A DNA stretch of 64,000 bases from Treponema sp. UBA4307. GTDB taxonomy: Bacteria > Spirochaetota > Spirochaetia > Treponematales > Treponemataceae. The stretch is taken from the NCBI GenBank assembly GCA_002394685.1, contig DGUP01000053.1:14767-78766 (forward strand), given 5' to 3'. Shown here one piece after another: positions 7,747 to 24,017 of this stretch. Both the position numbers and the translations under genes were made by a program. The notes under the pieces are model-generated. The model worked only from the letters and a program-made list of their open reading frames with translations, was not told the origin of the DNA and did not search any database. Numbering within the stretch: the first letter of the stretch is position 1; each line of letters opens with the position of its first letter.

Positions 7747-8403
7747 ATGAAAGCAAAAAGATTTTTGAACTGTATATTGCTCGGTGTTATGGCGGAACTT
7801 ATTATTTTAAGCGCTTCCTGTTCTGGAAAAGATAATAAAATCAGTATGCCTTCAGGAGGAAATAATTCTGTGTCCGATATAATCAGCCGGCAAATGCAGG
7901 AGGAAAATCCTCCATATGAAGAATATCCCCTGGATGAAGAAGGCTATTATCCGGAAGAAGATGAAGAAGCTGAAGATTATGTTGATATAGTTTCTGAAAT
8001 TCTTAAAGAAAAGAAATGGTCTTCCCAGCGTCTTGCCTCTTTAGCTGAATGGGATAAATTGAAGGTTGATATTGATTTCAGTCAGATGAATTTTATTGTA
8101 GCCCAGGGACAGGTGTTTGATATGATGCTTGATGCCCAGTCCTACAATGGTATGACTACAAAAATAAATGGAAAATTTGTTTCTCAGGAAAGTCCCTATG
8201 GTAGAACATATGCTGCCCTCTATTACGATGCAACAGCCTGCTGTCAAACTGGGCTGTCCTTTATAATCAATGACGGTCTGGTTTTTCCAAAGGATTATCC
8301 TGAGGAGATGGAAGATATTGCAATTTACGGCACAATTCGAGTTGCACAGATTCAGGGAATGGAATTTATGTATGTAGAAGTTGCAAAATACTTCTTTGAA
8401 TAG
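7747..8403 (+). CDS. Lipoprotein with Cys-Cys motif, last gene of the metal transporter operon
   Basis: Lipobox SASC, acidic linker, YYDATACCQTGLSF. Start refined to ATG 7747. Confidence 0.6.
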   Translation: MKAKRFLNCILLGVMAELIILSASCSGKDNKISMPSGGNNSVSDIISRQMQEENPPYEEYPLDEEGYYPEEDEEAEDYVDIVSEILKEKKWSSQRLASLAEWDKLKVDIDFSQMNFIVAQGQVFDMMLDAQSYNGMTTKINGKFVSQESPYGRTYAALYYDATACCQTGLSFIINDGLVFPKDYPEEMEDIAIYGTIRVAQIQGMEFMYVEVAKYFFE

Positions 8404-8437
8404 AATCTGCCGGAGTGCCGGAGAAAGCCTATTGAAT

Positions 8438-8466
8438 AAAAAAAAGCCAGCGTACTTGACGCCGGC
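8438..8466 (-). terminator. Intrinsic terminator oriented for a minus-strand transcript
   Basis: Minus strand reads GCCGGCGT-caagt-ACGCTGGC-T8. There is no U-tract on the plus strand. Confidence 0.6.
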
Positions 8467-8826
8467 CGCACATTAAAAAAAGTAAACCTGAACAATCAGG
8501 AACAATGTTCATAAGAGGCTCACTTTTTTAAATCAATATTATTACTAAACACAATACTATCACCGTGAGAGTCATTTGTAAAGAATAACATTTTGTTTAA
8601 AATTAGGATTTTTTTGTTGTAATAACTAATTTATTGTTATTTAACTATACAAGTGTACTGTAAAAGAGAAATTTCAGTCCTTTAATTGATGCATTTTTTT
8701 ATAACAGCTATTTTTTTTGATAATTCAATAAATATGAAATATAATTTAATATCATTACAGTAATATTGTAAAATGTCCGATAAATATTAATAATATAGAA
8801 AACTTTTTTTTCTGAGGATTGGAGAG

Positions 8827-11031
8827 ATGAAGAAAACAACCTTTTATGATAAGACTCTTACACGAGAGTTGTCTTTTAGTATTGGTGCAGTACTTATTGT
8901 ACTTCTGGTGGCTCTTGGCTTATTTCTTGCATTAAGAGTTAACAAAGGTTTCAGAAGTATATCTGATGATTATCTTAATCAGGTCAGTGAATATTATTCT
9001 TCTTCTACAGAAAAGATTCTTGAAGGCGAATTCAAAATAGGAACCACATTAAAGGCTGCCATGGAATGTTTTGAAGAAATCGAGCCTGAAAATCGACGTG
9101 ACTATTTAAATAATTTTTTAAGACAGACCCTTGAAGAAAATCCTAATCTTGTAGATACCTGGTGTGTCTGGGAGCCGAATGCACTGGATGGAATGGATGC
9201 CAGATATGCAACTCATGACGGACAAACTGCTCCTGATACAGATCAGTCAGGACGCTTTATTCCATACTGGACACAGGTGGGTTCAACAATTGACTGTACT
9301 GCACTTACTGAATATGAAGAGGGCAGCTGGTACGTTGATCCATTTAATAATGATAAAGGTATTCTCATAGACCCTAACCTTTATGAAGTTGGTGGAAAAA
9401 TGATGTGGGTTTGCGGTGCAGCTTTTCCAATCAAAGATAAGAATGGAAAGTCTATCGGTGTAGTTGGACTTGATATGTCTCTGGACACTTTGACTAACAT
9501 GCTGAGATCTGCTGAACTTTATAAGAGTGGATATCTTTCCTTGATTTCAAATACAGGTCTTACTGCTGTTGATAAGGATATAAATCTGGAAGGTCAGACT
9601 TACACTTATTATGATGACAAAACATACGGTGACTTCTTTAAGAAAGCCCGGTCTTCCCTTCAGTCTCAGACTTTCTCCACAGCAGACGGATATATTCATA
9701 TTGTAAATCCAATTCAGGTTGCCGGAGCAGATGAAATCTGGTACTTGGGAGCAAATGTTCCTTCTTCAGAAGTAAATCGTCCTATAAAGGATATTGTAAC
9801 AATCGTAATCATAGGATTTGTAATTACAACAGTCGTTCTTTATGTACTTACATTCCTCTTTGTTTCAATCATGTCTTCTTCCCTTAAACGGGGAGTTGCC
9901 GCACTTAAAAATATTGCTCAGGGTGATGGAGACCTTACAGTTCGTGTTGAAGCAAAAAAGGACAACGAACTTGGCCAGATGTACACTTACTTCAACGAAA
10001 CAATGGAAAAGCTTCAGAATTCAATTGGAAAGGTAAAAACTGAATCTGAGTCTATGGAACAGACTGGTATTATGCTTACTGAAAATATGAATACTACTGC
10101 GGCTGCTGCAAATCAGGTAACTGCAAATATTGAAAGCGTTAATCAGGAAGTAAAGAAACAGGCTGGCAATGTAAAGAGTGCAAACGATTCAGTTGAAGAA
10201 ATCAATGAACAGGTTAAGAAACTCGTTGGCAGCATAGAATCTCAAAGTTCCAGCGTAGTTGAATCTTCTTCTGCAATTGAACAGATGGTTGCAAATATTC
10301 GTTCTGTAACCAACATTCTTAAGGCTAACAGTGAAACTATTGAAAGCCTTGAAAAATCTTCTGAAGCTGGTAGAGAAAATATCGCTTCAAGTGTTGATGC
10401 TACAGAAAAAATTCGTGAGCAGTCAAAAACACTGCTGGAAGCTTCAAGCGTTATTCAGAATATTGCCGAACAAACAAACCTGCTGGCTATGAATGCAGCA
10501 ATTGAAGCGGCACATGCGGGGGAGGCTGGAAAGGGCTTCTCTGTTGTTGCAGATGAAATTCGTAAACTTGCAGAAGATTCAAATACTCAGGGTAAGAAAA
10601 TTACAGAAAATCTTAATGAAGTACTTTCAAGTATTGAAGATGTTACAAATTCTACAATGCAGATGCAGACTCAGTTCGGCGAAATTTATGAGCTGACACA
10701 AAAAGTTTCTCAGCAGGAACTTACGATTATGCATGCAATGCAAGAACAGTCAGAAGGTGGTGGACAGGTACTTCAGGCAATGAAGGAAATTAATGACATT
10801 ACAATGAATGTTAGAAATGGCAGTGAAGCAATGCAGGCCGCTACAGATAATGTTAATAAGGAAATGGATGTACTCACCCGTATTACTGATGAAATTACTT
10901 CAAGTATGGAAGAGATGGCTTTTGGTCTTGCTGATATTAACAACAGCATCAATCATGTTAATGATGAGACCCACAACCTTAAAGACAGTATCCAGAGTCT
11001 GACTGCAGTTGTTAATACATTCAAGGTATAA
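8827..11031 (+). CDS. Methyl-accepting chemotaxis protein (Cache-type sensor, HAMP, MA domain)
   Basis: Two TM segments, periplasmic sensor, [34 protein letters not shown]. Confidence 0.93.
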
Positions 11032-14833: not shown

Positions 14834-15301
14834 ATGAAAAAAATTATTGCTTTTTTATTTATTGCGCTTACATTTTCAACTTTAGCATTTGCACAATCTT
14901 CTGTGGAACTTAAGGAAGATTCCTCTGCAAGTATTCGTGAATATCAACTTAAAAACAGCCTGCTGGGATTTGGTACAGGTTCCAGACTGCAGGGGGATTT
15001 AGAATCTGCAAAAAAACTTCTGACTTTTGATATTGCAGGAATCTCTCTTATGACAGTTGGAACTATTTCAATGGTGGCTACTGATTTTACGTATAAATTT
15101 TTAAAGGCTTACGTAGGAGAGCTTTCAAAAGCTGACTACTGGATTTCAGGTTCCATAATCGGTGCAGGTGTTGTTGTTTTTATAACTGGAAGGGTATTCG
15201 GCTGGGTTTTACCTGAAAAATTTGAAGTGTCAGAAAATGCAGAAATTTCTTTGACAACCTATCAGGGAAATCCTGCTTTACAACTGCAGGTGAGATGGTA
15301 A
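14834..15301 (+). CDS. Borrelia P13-like membrane protein
   Basis: Signal peptide; NSLLGFGTGSRLQGD resembles the P13 LGFGIGSFxQGD motif; GRVFGWVLP; start refined to ATG 14834. Confidence 0.55.
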   Translation: MKKIIAFLFIALTFSTLAFAQSSVELKEDSSASIREYQLKNSLLGFGTGSRLQGDLESAKKLLTFDIAGISLMTVGTISMVATDFTYKFLKAYVGELSKADYWISGSIIGAGVVVFITGRVFGWVLPEKFEVSENAEISLTTYQGNPALQLQVRW

Positions 15302-15322
15302 ATGGTACAGACAGGAGGATTT

Positions 15323-16306
15323 ATGAAAAGACTTTTTCCTTTGATTTTTATTACGGTATTTTTTCTTACAAGCTGTGTTGCTTATATTGATTCCAAAAAC
15401 AGAAAGGCCGAAAGTCAGGCAGAATTTAAGGTCACATGGAATTCCAGTGTTGGAAATAAAATTTCAAATCTTGAATATGATAAAGGCACTTACAATAAGT
15501 ACGATTTATATCTTCCAGCTGATTCTACCACGGAGCAGGCAAAACATCTTATTATGTTTACCCATGGAGGTGGATGGACCGGGGGTAGCAAGGATTCTGG
15601 AGAACTCTATTGTAAATACTTTACTTCCAAAGGTTATGTAACCGCTTCAATTGATTATACTTTGTGGGATGGAACTCACACTCCTTCAATCGCCTCTCTG
15701 AATGACGAACTTCTGGCGGCTGTGACTGCAATTAAAATCAAGTGTTCCGAAAAAGGTTTTGAATTGATGGATATGGCAACTTTTGGTTACAGTGCGGGTG
15801 CTTGTCAAAGTCTTCTCTATTCTTTTACTCATAAGGATGATTCTCCTCTTCCTGTAAAATTCTGCATGGACTGGTCAGGGCCTGTTACATTTGATCCAGC
15901 CTACTGGTCTGTGGAGGCGGGAATCTACGAACCGGAACTTGGGCTTCTTGGATTAAAACATGGCAGTGATTCAGAGATTGCGGCTTTTGTTGAAAAGTTC
16001 AGCGGGCAGAATGTTACTGTTGAAGATGTAAAGTCTGGTGCTGCAGAAGCTGTATGGAATTCAATTTCCCCAGTCTTTTATGTTAAAGAAAACTGGGTTC
16101 CTGTAATTCAGTGTTACGGTGTTTACGATGGAATTGTGCCTGTAGGTCAGCAGAAACTTTTTACGACTGTTCTTGAAGAAAATGAAGTTCCCCATAACAC
16201 TGTAGTTTTTCCACACTCTGGTCATGGCCTGCATTGCGACATAGACAAGATCAGAGTGTTTAAAAAACTTGCTGACCAGTACTGCCAGCAGTATTTTGGA
16301 ATCTAG
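15323..16306 (+). CDS. Alpha/beta hydrolase lipoprotein (carboxylesterase-like)
   Basis: Lipobox LTSC, HGGGW, GYSAG, D..VP and HSGHG; AGGAGG RBS before 15323. Confidence 0.85.
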   Translation: MKRLFPLIFITVFFLTSCVAYIDSKNRKAESQAEFKVTWNSSVGNKISNLEYDKGTYNKYDLYLPADSTTEQAKHLIMFTHGGGWTGGSKDSGELYCKYFTSKGYVTASIDYTLWDGTHTPSIASLNDELLAAVTAIKIKCSEKGFELMDMATFGYSAGACQSLLYSFTHKDDSPLPVKFCMDWSGPVTFDPAYWSVEAGIYEPELGLLGLKHGSDSEIAAFVEKFSGQNVTVEDVKSGAAEAVWNSISPVFYVKENWVPVIQCYGVYDGIVPVGQQKLFTTVLEENEVPHNTVVFPHSGHGLHCDIDKIRVFKKLADQYCQQYFGI

Positions 16307-16307
16307 G

Positions 16308-18194
16308 TTAAAGAGTAAACTTCTTCATTTCAGAATCAATTCCTGCAATAGCAAAGCGGTTTTTCTCTGAAGACATATTTACCTGTTTTACAACTGTGAC
16401 GATTTTTTCAGAGGCATTTTCCATTTCGCTTATTGCTGAATTAATTTCCTGATTTGCCTGATCCAGGGCCTGCATCTGGTTAACAACCATTTGTCCTCCG
16501 TCCCGCATTTCCTGGGCATCATTTTTAACGTCGATTGTTGTAGAATCAATATGGCGCATTGCTTCCAGAATCTGGGTGCTTCCCGCACTCTGCTGCAGCA
16601 TTGCATTGCGGACAGTTTCTTCCTGATCATTTACAACTTTTGACAGGTTAGCCATAATTTCAAACTGCCCCTGAACCAGGCGGGTACTTTCACTTACGCT
16701 GTTAATGACATCCTGAATTTTCTGAAGACTGTCTGAAATATGTTTTCCCTGTTCGTCACTCTGGATTGCAAGCTTACGAATTTCATCTGCAACAACAGAA
16801 AATCCTCTTCCTGCTTCTCCTGCATGAGCTGCTTCAATGGCGGCATTCATAGCCAGCAGGTTAGTCTGACTTGCAATGTCCTGAATTACAGTTGAAGCCT
16901 CAATCAAGCCCTGGCTTTCATCAAGAATTTTACTTGCGTAATTAACGGCCTGCTCAACTCTTTCGTAGCCCAGGTCGTATGCTTTTGAAAGCTGTTCAGA
17001 AGTTACGCTGTTCTTTTCCAGAATATCTGTAACGTCTTTAATATTTGTAACCATCTGCCTTACAGCAGCCGCACTTTCTTCTACGCTGGAACTTTGAGCC
17101 TGAATGCTGCAGTTAAGCTTTTCAATATTCTGCATGATATTGTTTGTAGCGTTTCTTGCAGTTTCTACATTTCCGGACTGATTTTTAATCTTTATATTTA
17201 CTGAAGAAATGTTTTCAAGAATTTCCCTGATTTCCTGGTCAGTTTTCTGCATATTATCTTCCAGTTCATTACTTACCTGAACTGTTGAACTGATATTTTG
17301 ATTTACTCCTGAAAGCAGTTTTTTGTTATTATCAAAGAAATCATTGAGATTATTGATGACCATACCAAACTGATCACGGTTTTCTACAGGAAGTTTTTCT
17401 CCGGTGTAGTCCCCCTTTGCCAGAAGACGACTCATATCACCAATTTTCTTAATGCTTTTAAGAAGTGATTTCATCTGAACTGCAACAGCAAATCCTGCAC
17501 AGAAAAGACCTGAGAGCATATGAGGAATCCAGGTAATGACAAATTTGATTGCAAAAGCATCTTTGTTGTCAAAAAATTTATCCCCGTAAGCTCCGTAAGT
17601 TGTAACGATTGAAAGCATTACTCCGGCAAAAATACCCCAGATAAGTACAATCATTGTTACAGTCAGGCGGGCAGTAATTCCCATTGATATATCACCATCC
17701 TTAAGTGGCAGAAATGAAAGCCATTTAGAATAGCGGTCAATCCACAAGGAATAAAAGAAAATGCTCACAAGACATGTAGCACTTACACTGGTATAAATGA
17801 CTCTCCATATTGACCCCTGTGCACCTGTAAGAGCAAAGGTCAGGTTAATTACACCTGGATAAATGAATCCTACCAGAATTGGTGTAATCATATTAAAGAA
17901 CATCTGGCTTTTGTATGCGCGGGTACATTCTTTCTGAGAAAGTTCGCTGCCGTCATAGTTTCGGATTTTTTTTTCCAGAGAGTGATTAACAAAAAAAATT
18001 CCCAGAATATAAATCAATATAAAAGTAAGTACCGGGATGGAAAAATAGACTTTGATTCTATCTTGTGTGGAATTATAAATGCTTGAATTGATAATTGAAA
18101 AACTCAGTCCGTAAATAAATGGAGCAACGTAAATCATCCAGCATAAAATACTTGTAAGCACTGGAGGACGGTTGCGTAAAGAATCCTGTCCCAT
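16308..18194 (-). CDS. Methyl-accepting chemotaxis protein with multi-TM N-terminus
   Basis: Several TM helices, HAMP-like region, [34 protein letters not shown]. Confidence 0.92.
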
Positions 18195-18308
18195 AGTGAA
18201 CTCCTGTTATTTCGAACAGGAAGATAATATTATAATTTTTATTTTTTACCAAGTAGATTTGATTTTTTTTATCTGTAAGTTATACTATTAAAAAAGTGGA
18301 GTTTAGAT

Positions 18309-19037
18309 ATGTTAAAATCATCTTATTTAAGAATTAGAAATTTTCTTGGACTTTTAGGCTGCCTGCTTCCAGTTCTGTGTGTGGCTGGAGCTGCCTTTTC
18401 TCCCAACACGGCAAACAAGGGCTGGTGGTATTCTATCAGCGTTACTTATTATTCAAGTCCTATGTTAACCGGGGTACTGGCTGCAGTGGGGCTTTTTCTG
18501 ATTGTATACCGCAGTTACGAGGCAGTTGATACTGTGATTAATACAATTGCCGGTTTCTTTGCCCTTTGTGTTGTCTGCTTTCCATGTGAATGTTCCTGGC
18601 TTCCTGAAACAACCCGGGTCGGACTTTTCTGGCTGCCTATCTACATTACAAAATGGGTTCACTATGCAACCGCTTTTCTCCTTTTCCTTCTGCTGGCAAT
18701 AAATTCCCTCTGGCTTTTTGCAAAAGGAAAGAATCCTGTTAAAAATAAAATTTACAAAATCTGCGGCTGGACTATGATAGGAGCTTTGCTTTGCTTTGGT
18801 CTTAATATGGTCTGGTGGAAAGTTGAACCAATGATTATTTTCTGGGAAACAGTGATGCTCCTGGCATTTGGTTTCAGCTGGCTGGTTAAGGGTCATTGCT
18901 TTGATAAGTGGTTCGGTAGATTGAATAAGATTCGCAAACAGGTTGTTAAAAATATTGAAATTCAGAATGAAAAGGAGTCTGAAAATTCTTCTGAAAATCA
19001 ATCTGAAAACTCATCGGAAAATCCTGAGGAAATTTAA
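18309..19037 (+). CDS. DUF998-like integral membrane protein
   Basis: SISxTYY, VHYATAFLLF, multiple TM helices; C-terminal SENx repeats. Confidence 0.6.
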   Translation: MLKSSYLRIRNFLGLLGCLLPVLCVAGAAFSPNTANKGWWYSISVTYYSSPMLTGVLAAVGLFLIVYRSYEAVDTVINTIAGFFALCVVCFPCECSWLPETTRVGLFWLPIYITKWVHYATAFLLFLLLAINSLWLFAKGKNPVKNKIYKICGWTMIGALLCFGLNMVWWKVEPMIIFWETVMLLAFGFSWLVKGHCFDKWFGRLNKIRKQVVKNIEIQNEKESENSSENQSENSSENPEEI

Positions 19038-19117
19038 ATAAAACCTTCCATTCTGTCCATATACATTTGGCCTTTAAATCTTTATAATAACTTATCCTAG
19101 CATTTAGAGGTTGTTAT

Positions 19118-20551
19118 ATGGGCGGCGTATTTGGTGTGGCTTCTAAAGATGATTGTTCTTTAGATTTGTTTTTTGGTGTTGATTATCACTCTCATCTTGG
19201 AACAAAAAAAGGTGGGCTGGCAGTTTACAAAAACGACGGCTCTTTCCAGCGTTCCATCCACAATATTTCTAATTCACCATTTAGAACTAAGTTTGATACA
19301 GATATTGGAAATATGAAGGGGCCGATAGGAATCGGATGTATTTCGGATTATGAAGCACAACCTCTTCTTGCCCGGTCTCATCTGGGACGTTTCGCAATAA
19401 CTACAGTTGGTGCAGTTGCAAATAAAGAAGAGCTGATTAAAGAACTTATGGAAAACGGCGGTTCTTTTCTGGAAATGTCAGGCGGGGAAGTTAATCAGAC
19501 AGAACTTATCCTTGCTCTCATAAACACACAGAAGACAATTGTTGACGGAATAAGATACGTACAGTCCAAGATTGAAGGTTCTATCTCCATGCTCATTGCT
19601 ACAGCGGACGGAATTTATGGAGCCAGAGATAAACTGGGACGCACTCCTCTTCACATCGGTATAAAAAAAGATAACAACGGTTCAATTTTATCTCACTGTA
19701 TTTCCTTTGAAAATTTTGCATACATGAATCTGGGCTACAAAGACGAACATGAACTTGGTCCGGCAGAAATTGTTTTTATAACATCAGACCGCTACGAAGT
19801 TATACAGCAGCCGGCAGACAAAATGAAAATCTGTACCTTCCTCTGGATTTACTACGGATATCCTACTGCCTGTTACGAAGGCGTTAATGTAGAAACAATG
19901 CGTTATAACTGTGGAAAATATCTTGCCATGCGGGACAAAGATTCTAATATTCATCCGGACTATGCAGCAGGAGTTCCAGATTCCGGTACTGCACACGCTG
20001 TAGGTTATGCAAATGAAGCCGGCATTCCTTTTACAAGACCTTTCATAAAATATACCCCAACCTGGCCACGTTCATTTATGCCGACTAATCAGGAGCAGCG
20101 TAATCTCATTGCCCACATGAAACTTATTCCTGTTCCTCAGCTTATAAAAGATAAAAGCATTTTGTTAATTGATGATTCAATTGTACGTGGAACACAACTT
20201 CGTGAAACAACGGACTTCCTCTATCAGTCTGGTGCAAAGGAAGTTCACGTAAGACCTGCATGTCCTCCAATTATGTTCGGTTGTAAATATTTAAATTTCT
20301 CACGCTCAAAGTCTGAAATGGATTTGATTGCCCGTCGGGTTGTAAAAAAGTTTGAAGGGGAGGATGTTAAACCTGAGGTACTTGCAAAATACTGTGATCC
20401 TGATACTCCTGAATATGAAAAGATGCAGGAAGAAATCAGAAAACAGCTGCACTTTACCACTCTGCGTTTTCATCGCCTTGATGATATGCTGGATTCAACA
20501 GGTCTGGACCACTGTAAACTTTGTACTTACTGCTGGAACGGTCAGGAATGA
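19118..20551 (+). CDS. purF: Amidophosphoribosyltransferase (variant lacking N-terminal Cys)
   Basis: Ntn-fold N-domain, GVPDSG, PRPP-binding LIDDSIVRGTQ, Fe-S-type cysteines (FGCKY, CTYCW); begins MGG, not MCG. Confidence 0.88.
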   Translation: MGGVFGVASKDDCSLDLFFGVDYHSHLGTKKGGLAVYKNDGSFQRSIHNISNSPFRTKFDTDIGNMKGPIGIGCISDYEAQPLLARSHLGRFAITTVGAVANKEELIKELMENGGSFLEMSGGEVNQTELILALINTQKTIVDGIRYVQSKIEGSISMLIATADGIYGARDKLGRTPLHIGIKKDNNGSILSHCISFENFAYMNLGYKDEHELGPAEIVFITSDRYEVIQQPADKMKICTFLWIYYGYPTACYEGVNVETMRYNCGKYLAMRDKDSNIHPDYAAGVPDSGTAHAVGYANEAGIPFTRPFIKYTPTWPRSFMPTNQEQRNLIAHMKLIPVPQLIKDKSILLIDDSIVRGTQLRETTDFLYQSGAKEVHVRPACPPIMFGCKYLNFSRSKSEMDLIARRVVKKFEGEDVKPEVLAKYCDPDTPEYEKMQEEIRKQLHFTTLRFHRLDDMLDSTGLDHCKLCTYCWNGQE

Positions 20552-20583
20552 TTCTGCTGAAAAATGTATTATAATTGGAGAGT

Positions 20584-20994
20584 ATGAATAACAGATTGTA
20601 CCGCGTTTTAGACGCAGATGTTTTTGAAAGCTATATGGCTATGGAAGGATGGGATTCATTTCCTTTTCTCCATACCCAGATTAATGAGAACGGCGAGTTC
20701 AGATCTTTTATGAAGGATTTTGAACAGTACATGATTTATACAGAAAAGGGAAGCGGTTGTCTTCTTGAAGCTGTATGCATTTACCGTATTCTTGGTGACA
20801 CTCTTGTAATTGATTATTTTGAAATCAATAAGAAAATCCGTCACCAGGGAATTGGGGCTGCAGTTCTTGAAACATTGATTTATGTTACTGGACTTTCAAA
20901 AGTAGAACTTGATGCTAAAGACGAAAATGCTGCTAAATTCTGGGCGGCCATGGGGCTTAAACAGAGTGATCAGCAGCATTTTACTTTAGGGTGA
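20584..20994 (+). CDS. GNAT N-acetyltransferase
   Basis: RHQGIGAAVL, AAKFWAAMG; GGAG RBS before 20584. Confidence 0.75.
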   Translation: MNNRLYRVLDADVFESYMAMEGWDSFPFLHTQINENGEFRSFMKDFEQYMIYTEKGSGCLLEAVCIYRILGDTLVIDYFEINKKIRHQGIGAAVLETLIYVTGLSKVELDAKDENAAKFWAAMGLKQSDQQHFTLG

Positions 20995-21009
20995 TTCTAT
21001 TTTGTAAAA

Positions 21010-22263
21010 TTATTTTGCGGGAATTGCTTCAGGAGCAGATTCTTCTTTCTGATCCTGATTGTTTTCCTGAGGATCTTTTGCGTAAAGAGCCTTAAGAAGA
21101 AGTGGTGTAGAAATTGAACTGATGATGATAAGCAGAATTACTGCAGTGAAAAATTCGCTTGAAAGTAATCCTGATGAAAGTCCTCTCTGAGCAACAATCA
21201 GTGCAACTTCACCACGAGTCATCATTCCGCAGCCAATTTTAAGACAATCTTTTCCTTTAAATCCTAACAGTCTGCTTATTCCTCCACATCCGACAACCTT
21301 TGAAGCCATACCGACTACAACAAATGCCAGTGAGAACAAAATCAGTGGAATGTCAATATTCTGGATATTTGTCTGCAATCCTATAGAACAGAAGAATACT
21401 GGTCCAAAGAGCATGTACTGGTTTACGTCCATCTTACGCTGAATGTAATTTGAATCTTTTGTAGAACAGAGAATTACGCCTGCAATGTATGCGCCGGTAA
21501 TGTCTGCAACTCCAAAGAATTTCTGAGCCACATAAGACATGATGAATGCAAGGGCAAGACCCATGATTGGAATACGGCGTGTGTGAGTCCAGCGGGAATC
21601 TGCTTTCTTAAAGAGTTTGTAGAAAAGAAAACCGAAGACAATTGCAAATACAAAGAATGCTGCTGTCTTAACGAGAACCAGCCAGATTTTTTCTGAAGGA
21701 TTTTTAAATCCGATTACGATTGTAAGAACAATAATTCCAATTACATCATCTATAATTGCAGCGCTTACAATTGTCTGGCCTAAAAAGTTGTTCAGCTTGC
21801 CCATTTCCTTTAAGGTCTGAACTGTAATACTTACTGAAGTTGCAGTGAGAATTGTTCCGATATAAAGAGCCTTGTAAAATTCTTCAGAACCGACTGTGTC
21901 AAAGCCGTAAAAGCACATGTAAAGAACTGTTCCTGCAATCAGAGGAATAAATACACCACAACATGCGATGATTGTTGCTTTAGCACCACTTTTCTTCAGG
22001 TCATTGATGTTGGTGCCCAAACCAGCGTTAAACATCAGCATAATTACGCCGATTTCTGCCATAAATGAAAGTGGTTCTGACTGTTGAACTCCTAAATACT
22101 GGCTGATGTAAGGAATTTTTCCGAAAATACTTGGCCCGATAATGAGCCCTGCAATAATTTCGCCTGCTACCTGAGGGGCTTTTAACTTGCGTGCCAGAAG
22201 TCCAAAAACTTTTGCAAAAATAATGATGACTGCAAGTTGTCTTAAAAAATCAATTTTGTCCAT
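21010..22263 (-). CDS. Cation:proton antiporter (CPA2, KefB/NapA-like)
   Basis: GEIIAGLIIGPS, AAIIDD, GMMTRGEVAL; about 12 TM helices. Confidence 0.9.
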   Translation of the reverse strand: MDKIDFLRQLAVIIIFAKVFGLLARKLKAPQVAGEIIAGLIIGPSIFGKIPYISQYLGVQQSEPLSFMAEIGVIMLMFNAGLGTNINDLKKSGAKATIIACCGVFIPLIAGTVLYMCFYGFDTVGSEEFYKALYIGTILTATSVSITVQTLKEMGKLNNFLGQTIVSAAIIDDVIGIIVLTIVIGFKNPSEKIWLVLVKTAAFFVFAIVFGFLFYKLFKKADSRWTHTRRIPIMGLALAFIMSYVAQKFFGVADITGAYIAGVILCSTKDSNYIQRKMDVNQYMLFGPVFFCSIGLQTNIQNIDIPLILFSLAFVVVGMASKVVGCGGISRLLGFKGKDCLKIGCGMMTRGEVALIVAQRGLSSGLLSSEFFTAVILLIIISSISTPLLLKALYAKDPQENNQDQKEESAPEAIPAK

Positions 22264-22407
22264 TCTGTTGTCTCTTGGGTATAATTATAGTTTTATGACT
22301 AAAATATTCAATATGTTCCATTTTTATAAGTCGTGAATCTTGCCTTTTTTAATCCTGCAGAATAGAATTTGGATGATATAAATTCTGCTTTTTTTAAAGA
22401 GGTTTGA

Positions 22408-23304
22408 ATGAATATTGCCCGTTATCATCTGCCAGGATTATTTGAGTTTTACGATTTGTACAAAAAGTTTCTTCCTCTTTACCGAACTCACAGGGAATAT
22501 TTTTACGAATGGTGCAGCATTGAGTCAATTTATGGTGCGCCGGGGGATTGTATCTGGGGCGGTGGAAGAGTTGGCTTTGGGGATGCAGATCCTGTGGAAG
22601 TTATTTCTCTGCTGAAGGAATATGATATTTCTCCCCGTTTAACTTTTAGCAATTCCTTATTAATAGAAGAAAATCTTCAGGATAAAAAATGTAATCATAT
22701 TTGCAGTCTCTTTTCTGCCTGCAGGAAATTAAGAACTGGCATCATAATTCATTCTGATTTACTTTTAAATTATTTACGTAAAAGGTTTCCGGATTTTTAT
22801 TATATTTCTTCAACAACTAAGGTCCTTACAGATTTTCATCAGTTTCATGAGGAATTAAAGCGGGATGAATTTGAATATGTTGTTCCAGATTTCAGGTTAA
22901 ATAAAGATTTTGCTGATCTGGAAAAATTATCCCGGGAAGAAAAAAATAAAGTTGAATTTTTATGTAACGAATGTTGCTTTGTAGGCTGTACTGAAAGAAA
23001 GGCTTGTTATGAAAATGTAAGCAGAAAAAGTTTGGGGCAGATTTGCCCGGATCATGTATGCAGGTCTCCGGGGGCGGATAGGGGCTATGTTTTTTCAAAA
23101 GCAATGAAAAATCCTTCATTTATTGGAATTGAGGAAATTCAAAAACTATATTTACAGGCGGGTTTTACAAATTTCAAGATTGAAGGTCGAAGCCTGGGAA
23201 GTGCCATTGTTCTGGAATTTCTGTTGTATTATTTAACAAAGCCTGAATATCAGCTGAATGTTCGTGAAGCCATCTACCTGGACAGCAGCCTGGACCTGTT
23301 TTAA
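22408..23304 (+). CDS. Peptidase U32-like putative Fe-S protein
   Basis: FLCNECCFVGC..R..CY, CPDHVC, FKIEGR. Confidence 0.6.
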   Translation: MNIARYHLPGLFEFYDLYKKFLPLYRTHREYFYEWCSIESIYGAPGDCIWGGGRVGFGDADPVEVISLLKEYDISPRLTFSNSLLIEENLQDKKCNHICSLFSACRKLRTGIIIHSDLLLNYLRKRFPDFYYISSTTKVLTDFHQFHEELKRDEFEYVVPDFRLNKDFADLEKLSREEKNKVEFLCNECCFVGCTERKACYENVSRKSLGQICPDHVCRSPGADRGYVFSKAMKNPSFIGIEEIQKLYLQAGFTNFKIEGRSLGSAIVLEFLLYYLTKPEYQLNVREAIYLDSSLDLF

Positions 23305-23308
23305 AAAT

Positions 23309-23350
23309 GGTCGGCGCTCACTACGTTTCAAATCCAAGTTTTGTTTAACA
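23309..23350. repeat. 42-bp partial copy of the tRNA-linked repeat unit
   Basis: Identical to 24323-24364 and one mismatch versus 24122-24163. Confidence 0.9.
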
Positions 23351-23362
23351 TTTTTTACGATA

Positions 23363-23701
23363 TTACAGACCAAGAATAAGTCTTATACCATCTTCTATTT
23401 CTGCCATATCATACCGAGAAATCTCACCAACTTTTTCTGTCAATCGAGACTTGTCTATAGCACCAGTTTGAGAAACAACAGCCACAGAATCCTTAGAAAG
23501 TGAACTGGAAGATTTCTCTATATATACATTCGCAGGTGCATCAGCAAGCATAAGATTTGTTGTGAGAGGAACAACAATTACAGTTCGGAGTTCTTTAATG
23601 TTAAATTCGTTTGTTTGAACAATAACTACAGGGCGACGAAATCCTGTTTCACTACCAAAAGGTACTCCGTAATCAGCCCAATAAATCTCACCACGAGTCA
23701 T
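23363..23701 (-). CDS. PemK/MazF-family toxin
   Basis: RGEIYWAD..GSETGFRRPVVIVQ, VVPLTT, IDKSRL. Confidence 0.9.
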   Translation of the reverse strand: MTRGEIYWADYGVPFGSETGFRRPVVIVQTNEFNIKELRTVIVVPLTTNLMLADAPANVYIEKSSSSLSKDSVAVVSQTGAIDKSRLTEKVGEISRYDMAEIEDGIRLILGL

Positions 23702-23924
23702 TTTTAGTCAGTTCCCTCCAGGAATCAAGTGTAGCACCACAATAAGCTGTCTGCTCATTCTCTGGAATCTTTGAATATATTGCAGCAAGTTTTTCAGATA
23801 TGTCTTCTGATTTTCTTGACTTAGCTTTTGCCTCATGTAAAAGGAATTGGACAAAATGCTCTACTTGCTCATAATATTCTTTTGGTAAAGACTTAATCTG
23901 TTTTTCCAAAACTTCGTATGGCAT
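23688..23924 (-). CDS. Putative antitoxin (DUF2281-like)
   Basis: Small gene overlapping the toxin start; LEKQIKSLP..QVEHFVQFL. Confidence 0.65.
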   Translation of the reverse strand: MPYEVLEKQIKSLPKEYYEQVEHFVQFLLHEAKAKSRKSEDISEKLAAIYSKIPENEQTAYCGATLDSWRELTKNDSW

Positions 23925-24017
23925 TCTGAACCTCCTTATTTTGTTTGATTATAACACATTTTGTAGAAAAAGACATAAAAAAAGGATTTACAATCTTAAA
24001 ATTGCAAATCCTCGTTG

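Follow-up and report, generated by a model that had tools for sequence, protein, structure and literature searches.

The 64,000-nucleotide stretch of the rumen bacterium Treponema sp. UBA4307 analysed here (contig DGUP01000053.1; the window) carries a gene for a homologue of PurF in which the catalytic cysteine and the rest of the glutamine site have been lost. PurF catalyses the committed step of purine synthesis, described in textbooks as glutamine-dependent, in which nitrogen is transferred to phosphoribosyl pyrophosphate (PRPP). The gene product is a full-length member of a distinct clade of Cys-less PurF proteins, correctly folded in its predicted model, and its phosphoribosyltransferase (PRTase) half is catalytically intact as judged from residue conservation. 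Comparative genomics suggests that the protein is probably an ammonia-dependent phosphoribosylamine synthase. A first-pass annotation of the sequence had already proposed a naturally ammonia-dependent purine entry enzyme, and this proposal gains support from the dead glutaminase site, the invariant PRTase site and the way the gene tracks the purine pathway across relatives, and further from genomes in which it is the sole copy and from an operon in which it occupies the position of purF.

The protein begins with M-G-G-V-F-G, encoded by ATG GGC GGC GTA, and the start codon is preceded by an appropriately spaced ribosome-binding site (Table 1). An in-frame TAA lies at 19088-19090, 10 codons upstream of the ATG, and no ATG, GTG or TTG occurs between the two, so that a propeptide or a longer N-terminus is impossible; an alternative start was rejected on these grounds, and the absence of a propeptide, pointed out in the first-pass annotation, is borne out. 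In the HMMER alignment to mature Bacillus subtilis PurF (1ao0), Gly3 of the query stands opposite Gly2 of the mature enzyme. Gly2 therefore occupies the position of Cys1, the nucleophile of the N-terminal nucleophile (Ntn) domain. The changes extend well past this residue. We take the glutamine site to comprise Arg26, Arg73/Tyr74, the oxyanion Asn-Gly and Asp127, in Escherichia coli numbering, as placed by the alignment to 1ao0. The LQHRGQ motif is replaced by YHSHLGT, turning HRGQ into HLGT; the eight-residue segment HVRYATAG, the Arg-Tyr 'Gln loop', is missing, with GCISD left in its place; in AHNG the oxyanion Asn has become Val97, with the Gly of the Asn-Gly pair alone kept; and SDTE has become NQTE, with Gln127 in place of Asp127. 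The equivalents of Arg26, the Arg73/Tyr74 loop, the oxyanion Asn and Asp127 are thus all replaced or deleted, and the loss covers the whole glutamine site, beyond the missing Cys1 noticed initially.

The remainder of the protein retains the hallmarks of PurF. Pfam recognizes a class II amidotransferase domain (GATase_7, E 3e-10) at residues 77-185, followed by a PRTase domain (Pribosyltran), and the closest solved structures are those of B. subtilis PurF (1ao0, E 2.8e-39, and 1gph, E about 3e-39), with Arabidopsis ASE2 also found. The match to the NCBIfam purF equivalog TIGR01134 spans positions 2-384 and scores 169.7 bits, below the cut-off of 350. The C-terminal half is a type I PRTase domain with both its PRPP loop and its flexible loop. 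Across 22 diverse members of the family, down to 35% identity, full invariance or conservation of at least 90% is seen in the pyrophosphate-binding GVPDSG, the PRPP loop ILLIDDSIVRGTQ, the flexible-loop residues K311, R318, S319, R328 and K335, and cysteines C239, C389, C469 and C472; R262, K311, R318, S319, R328, K335, D353, S354 and R357 are the invariant PRTase residues. The four cysteines stand at the predicted ligand positions of a [4Fe-4S] cluster, which places the protein by sequence in the B. subtilis-type subclass; the intact PRPP motif and Fe-S-type cysteines reported at first reading are confirmed by the alignment to B. subtilis PurF and by family conservation. An AlphaFold2 model built from the family alignment (pLDDT 92.9, pTM 0.91) predicts the two-domain PurF fold, and its top Foldseek matches are the PurF structures of Arabidopsis (6lbp), B. 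subtilis (1ao0) and E. coli (1ecb), with TM scores of 0.80-0.85 over both domains. Mean pairwise identity in the N- and C-domains is 0.38 and 0.41 among Cys-less proteins and 0.52 and 0.56 among canonical PurFs. As the ratio between the domains resembles that of canonical PurF, the N-domain is not decaying.

The Cys-less clade is large, with members in Bacillota, Bacteroidota, Spirochaetota and Archaea. The 120 closest proteins are 76-90% identical to the query and come from across Treponema species; where named, they carry the label 'MAG: Treponema sp. amidophosphoribosyltransferase', MAG standing for metagenome-assembled genome. Among the matches listed, the best after Treponema belong to Lachnospiraceae, Oscillospiraceae and other Clostridia (62-68% identity), and a Muribaculaceae cluster stands at 48%. 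Searched exhaustively with HMMER, 1.84 billion cluster representatives yielded 667 at E <= 1e-30, and a scan of one genome per species found a match in at least 600 species. Full-length members, from hundreds of independent assemblies, start with M-[G/S/T/A]-G-hydrophobic-x-G and have the DYHSHLGT-type motif in common. Two distant members, with MSG and MGG starts, have archaeal PolD and Cdc6 genes as neighbours (L104, 4882-6297, and L107, 6001-7386). Both are encoded directly 3' of the large subunit of archaeal DNA polymerase D; the two contigs share this arrangement, including a nearby TctA gene, with no pur genes nearby.

In a quick maximum likelihood search, with branch support from SH-aLRT (the Shimodaira-Hasegawa-like approximate likelihood ratio test) only, Cys-less sequences are split from canonical PurFs with a support of 99. 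Among the former, the MGG forms make up a derived subclade (99), and the deeper branches have Ser, Thr or Ala at position 2. The Cys-less sequences of Treponema form one clade (100) nested inside sequences of Bacillota, the canonical PurFs of Treponema group with those of other spirochaetes, and just 7 of the 17 Treponemataceae genera have the Cys-less gene. Together these three observations suggest that the Treponema copy was probably acquired horizontally from gut Bacillota, a conclusion that presupposes a root between the Cys-less and the canonical clade. Two cluster representatives on the canonical side of the tree, P0234 and P0243, keep the Cys, LQHRGQ and the GN oxyanion motif, yet have the Arg-Tyr loop deleted as in the Cys-less clade, and may be evolutionary intermediates.

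The distribution of the Cys-less gene follows that of the purine pathway. We scored 256 Treponemataceae genomes of at least 90% completeness for canonical purF (TIGR01134), the Cys-less protein (the query, E <= 1e-90) and purD. The Cys-less gene was found in 108 of these genomes, all but one of which also have purD; the remaining carrier is a fragmented assembly with 7% contamination and a canonical purF. The 232 purD-positive genomes comprise about 90 with both types of PurF, about 123 with the canonical type only, 17 with the Cys-less type only and 2 with neither. The 17 Cys-less-only genomes belong to four genera, with assemblies of 4, 6 and 10 contigs among them; purD was separately confirmed in nine of them and purM in four. 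Of five genomes in the genus with neither type of PurF, four are without purD too. Among pathway-positive genomes, 17 of 19 without canonical purF carry the Cys-less gene, against 90 of 213 with canonical purF (Fisher odds ratio 11.6, p 6e-5, a value that overstates the evidence, related genomes being non-independent). Six Treponemataceae genomes from genera g21, g24 and g26 (G048, G049, G071, G075, G101 and G105) have intermediate TIGR01134 matches, with E between 1e-82 and 1e-96, estimated to lie below the 350-bit cut-off and falling outside the Cys-less family. These matches may represent a third, divergent type of PurF; G048 and G049 are without purD.

The pattern was replicated in 251 Lachnospiraceae genomes of at least 95% completeness. 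A sub-cut-off PurF match is the only one in 24 of them, and purD was present in all 11 of these that were tested; the five tested for type all belong to the Cys-less family, with no canonical match even at E 1e-20. The four Lachnospiraceae genomes lacking any PurF homologue all lack purD as well. Both types of PurF occur together in five Clostridia isolates. In roughly 7-10% of the Treponemataceae and Lachnospiraceae genomes sampled, the Cys-less lineage supplies the sole PurF.

Gene order in relatives leads to the same pathway. In the Lachnospiraceae genome G491, which has no canonical purF, a gene for a PurF-like protein starting with MGGFFG sits in the tightly packed series purE-purC-[PurF-like]-purM-purN-IMP cyclohydrolase-AICARFT-purD-purL, and thus occupies the classical purF slot. 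The same operon encodes a separate PurO-like inosine monophosphate (IMP) cyclohydrolase (PF07826; L090, 7223-7942, minus strand) and a 394-residue formyltransferase (AICARFT) acting on aminoimidazole carboxamide ribotide, rather than a bifunctional PurH. Directly 5' of the Cys-less gene lies purE in another genome (G487), purL in Muribaculaceae and purB in five Clostridia loci. Two Treponema genomes (G235 and G237) have it in tandem with canonical purF, and three others have purD within 2-3 kb. Clustering of neighbours, four genes per side at 78 loci, revealed no conserved non-pur neighbour and no glutaminase partner, the commonest family being a generic ABC ATPase at no more than 12 loci.

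The genome of the window also has a canonical purF, a possibility raised at first reading and here confirmed. A TIGR01134 search covering all 80 contigs of the assembly (2.997 Mb, 94.7% complete) found it on another contig, adjoining purE, with a score of 521.4 bits. It encodes 500 residues and has all the standard motifs: a propeptide ending in ...RDEC|GVVGVY, LQHRGQ, AHNGQ, SDTE and the cluster cysteines. The gene in the window is therefore a paralogue or isozyme and not the sole entry enzyme of this organism.

On the proposed mechanism, the enzyme would bind PRPP as PurF does and use free NH3 as the nucleophile, giving 5-phosphoribosylamine that would pass to PurD. The Ntn domain, stripped of its nucleophile and glutamine-binding residues, is probably retained as a scaffold and channel, and deletion of the Arg-Tyr loop may open the former glutamine pocket or channel to solvent. 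In the present organism the protein would act as an isozyme beside the canonical glutamine-dependent PurF. With ammonia in abundance, such an isozyme might save glutamine along with the ATP that glutamine synthetase consumes, a benefit that would account for the retention of both types in many genomes. The matches are rumen and gut MAGs, so that a link to ammonia-rich habitats is plausible. The chemistry has a precedent in E. coli PurF, in which, according to the passage of PMC3261824 citing Mei and Zalkin 1989, replacement of Cys1 abolishes activity with glutamine and preserves the use of ammonia.

Several observations weigh against this interpretation. In the window the Cys-less gene stands alone, unlinked to any pur gene, the association with pur genes and the pathway being found across relatives; nor is there a purine riboswitch 5' of it, the region 15000-24000 containing no riboswitch or other RNA element and a single match, to a snoRNA, at chance level. 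The contribution of the Cys-less copy could be minor or conditional in a genome with a canonical purF, and most carriers keep both types, which calls for a reason beyond simple replacement. The counts are drawn mostly from MAGs and from related, non-independent genomes. The family-specific polar residues D22, Y23, S76 and N126 of the N-domain are conserved without an explained role. NH3 as the donor in this clade is something that we infer. Finally, routes to phosphoribosylamine that are independent of PurF exist in enterobacteria (PMC3485032), and being the sole PurF homologue is for this reason no strict proof of catalysis.

Conservation of the N-domain also lends itself to a different account, under which the protein is a PRPP-dependent transferase that receives nitrogen from an unlinked glutaminase docking on the remodelled Ntn domain, or from another amine or amide donor, and makes phosphoribosylamine or a related ribosylamine. 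In its favour, the N-domain matches the catalytic domain in degree of conservation and has acquired a new conserved polar motif, DYHSHLGT, while the Ser or Thr found at position 2 in the deeper branches are nucleophiles in other Ntn hydrolases. However, this position may hold Gly or Ala as well as Ser or Thr, so the side chain there is not essential, and the residues that bind glutamine have gone. In G491 the complete operon has no glutaminase other than the one inside purL, and the lack of a conserved neighbour across the 78 loci tells both against this account, which we regard as distinctly unlikely, and against the alternative in the first-pass annotation that the enzyme is fed by a separate glutaminase.

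The coexistence of the two PurF types in most carriers, this genome included, and their tandem arrangement in some Treponema genomes would suit a non-catalytic pseudoenzyme that regulates or scaffolds canonical PurF, for instance in mixed tetramers, or senses PRPP or nucleotides. Such a role is difficult to reconcile with the 17 purD-bearing Treponemataceae genomes in which the protein is the only PurF homologue, the 24 Lachnospiraceae genomes with a sub-cut-off match only, the occupation of the purF slot in an operon with no canonical copy, and the invariance of all PRTase catalytic residues; we judge it very unlikely. Less probable still is that the enzyme continues to use glutamine, through a nucleophile at a new position or by some unconventional mechanism. 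Cys13 is common in the family and could be considered for this part, but it is not invariant, being Val or Ala in several members; the equivalents of the oxyanion Asn, Arg73 and Asp127 are all missing, and in E. coli substitutions of Cys1 abolish the use of glutamine, according to PMC3261824. An artefact, whether a sequencing error at codon 2, where GGC is one base from TGC, a mis-called start or a decaying pseudogene, is refuted by conservation: of the 120 closest proteins, 114 begin with MGG[IVFL]FG, hundreds of independent assemblies share the MGG start, several further site residues have changed together, the frame is intact at 76-90% identity across species, and the in-frame stop 10 codons upstream and the correctly placed ribosome-binding site fix the start.

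An ammonia-dependent synthase would have parallels among other amidotransferases. NH3-dependent NAD+ synthetase NadE and the asparagine synthetase AsnA, as opposed to AsnB, follow the same logic of a glutamine-independent isozyme for an amide-transfer step. In those cases the glutaminase domain is absent or the proteins are unrelated, whereas Cys-less PurF keeps a conserved dead domain. With the B. subtilis-type [4Fe-4S] PurF (EC 2.4.2.14; 1ao0, 1gph, and Arabidopsis 6lbp) the protein shares its two-domain architecture and fold, the PRPP loop, the basic residues of the flexible loop, the four cluster cysteines and, in relatives, the operon position. It differs in being only 26-27% identical, in scoring less than half of the equivalog cut-off, in lacking the propeptide, Cys1, the glutamine-binding residues, the oxyanion Asn and the eight residues of the Arg-Tyr loop, and in belonging to a separate clade. 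With the Cys1 mutants of E. coli PurF it shares the missing nucleophile, and their ammonia-dependent activity would be, by analogy, the chemistry proposed here. The mutants, as they appear in PMC3261824, are laboratory point changes in an otherwise intact glutamine site; the Cys-less clade, by contrast, is natural, ancient and widespread, and the whole of its site is remodelled.

A full-text literature search found no paper characterising the Cys-less PurF family, the only related remark concerning Mlab_0150, the second purF-like gene of Methanocorpusculum labreanum (PMC3261824). Its product has Ser for the active-site Cys; the authors judged the gene a recent duplicate of the canonical one and left its function open. 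Like the gene in the window, Mlab_0150 is by its published description a second purF that lacks the catalytic Cys and accompanies a canonical copy; members of the Cys-less clade occur in archaeal contexts too, next to PolD and Cdc6.

The Cys-less protein lacks three defining features of glutamine PRPP amidotransferase, namely the equivalog score, Cys1 and the glutamine site, and should not be assigned to EC 2.4.2.14 in its present state; judging by its sequence, it works like the PRTase half of PurF. New in this window are the spirochaete case, with its probable transfer from Bacillota, and two family-wide co-occurrence tables. If the ammonia-dependent reading is true, automatic annotation as EC 2.4.2.14 is wrong for the Cys-less proteins, metabolic models of rumen and gut anaerobes need revision in stoichiometry and nitrogen routing, and inhibition by glutamine analogues and the nitrogen regulation of purine synthesis in these organisms need to be reread. 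The clade would also offer a natural system for the role of the Ntn domain and the ammonia channel after loss of the glutaminase.

A second pathway shows a similar gap. At five Lachnospiraceae loci (L043, L051, L057, L069 and L073), with the PurF-like gene at about 8001-9404, a full-length carB, for a carbamoyl-phosphate synthase large subunit of 1073-1075 residues, lies directly 3' of it, with no carA adjacent; carA (TIGR01368, E <= 1e-30) was not found anywhere in three of four genomes searched, which are MAGs of unstated completeness. Such a carB without carA may be a second glutaminase-less step of a nucleotide pathway. It is conceivable, though on balance we doubt it, that the polar residues D22, Y23, H26, S76 and N126 at the former glutamine pocket make up a site for ammonia or ammonium capture or gating, which would let the enzyme bind NH3 with usable affinity and couple purine synthesis to the ammonia supply; with carB lacking carA, this would amount to glutamine-independent, ammonia-driven nucleotide synthesis in gut anaerobes.

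Table 1. Features of the Cys-less purF gene and its upstream region, in window coordinates.
Feature	Position	Strand	Basis and remarks
Candidate sigma-70-like promoter, TATACA-17-TATAAT	19060..19088	+	Consensus scan, 10/12 matches; pattern match alone
Ribosome-binding site AGAGG	19106..19110	+	7 nt 5' of ATG; direct sequence reading
Cys-less PurF-like coding sequence	19118..20551	+	477 residues; stop TGA included
N-terminal Ntn-fold domain, dead glutaminase site	19118..19813	+	Residues 1-232; Pfam GATase_7 and residue substitutions
Codon 2, GGC (Gly), site of Ntn nucleophile Cys1	19121..19123	+	Alignment to 1ao0; G/S/T/A here in the family
Family-specific motif DYHSHLGT in place of (S/A)LQHRGQ	19181..19204	+	Y23 and H26 at least 90% conserved in the family
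PRTase domain and C-terminal helical part	19814..20551	+	Residues 233-477; Pfam Pribosyltran
Cys239, first [4Fe-4S] ligand position	19832..19834	+	Aligns with ICS of B. subtilis PurF; invariant in the family
PRPP-binding loop ILLIDDSIVRGTQ	20159..20197	+	Residues 348-360; intact
Cys389, second cluster ligand position	20282..20284	+	Alignment to B. subtilis PurF; family conservation
Cys469-x-x-Cys472, third and fourth cluster ligand positions	20522..20533	+	Alignment; family conservation

The immediate neighbours of the Cys-less gene in the window are a gene for a membrane protein and an open reading frame with a weak GNAT match; beyond them lie genes for a methyl-accepting chemotaxis protein and a Na+/H+ exchanger. 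The downstream frame (20575-20994, plus strand) encodes 139 residues from a TTG start 24 nt past the purF stop and matches GNAT acetyltransferases weakly (E 2.9e-4). An operon with this frame was ruled out, as the neighbour is not kept in other Treponema loci. The upstream gene (18309-19037, plus strand) encodes a 242-residue multi-pass membrane protein with no Pfam match, the C-terminal tail of which contains a (S)ENS/ENQ repeat (…ESENSSENQSENSSENPEE).

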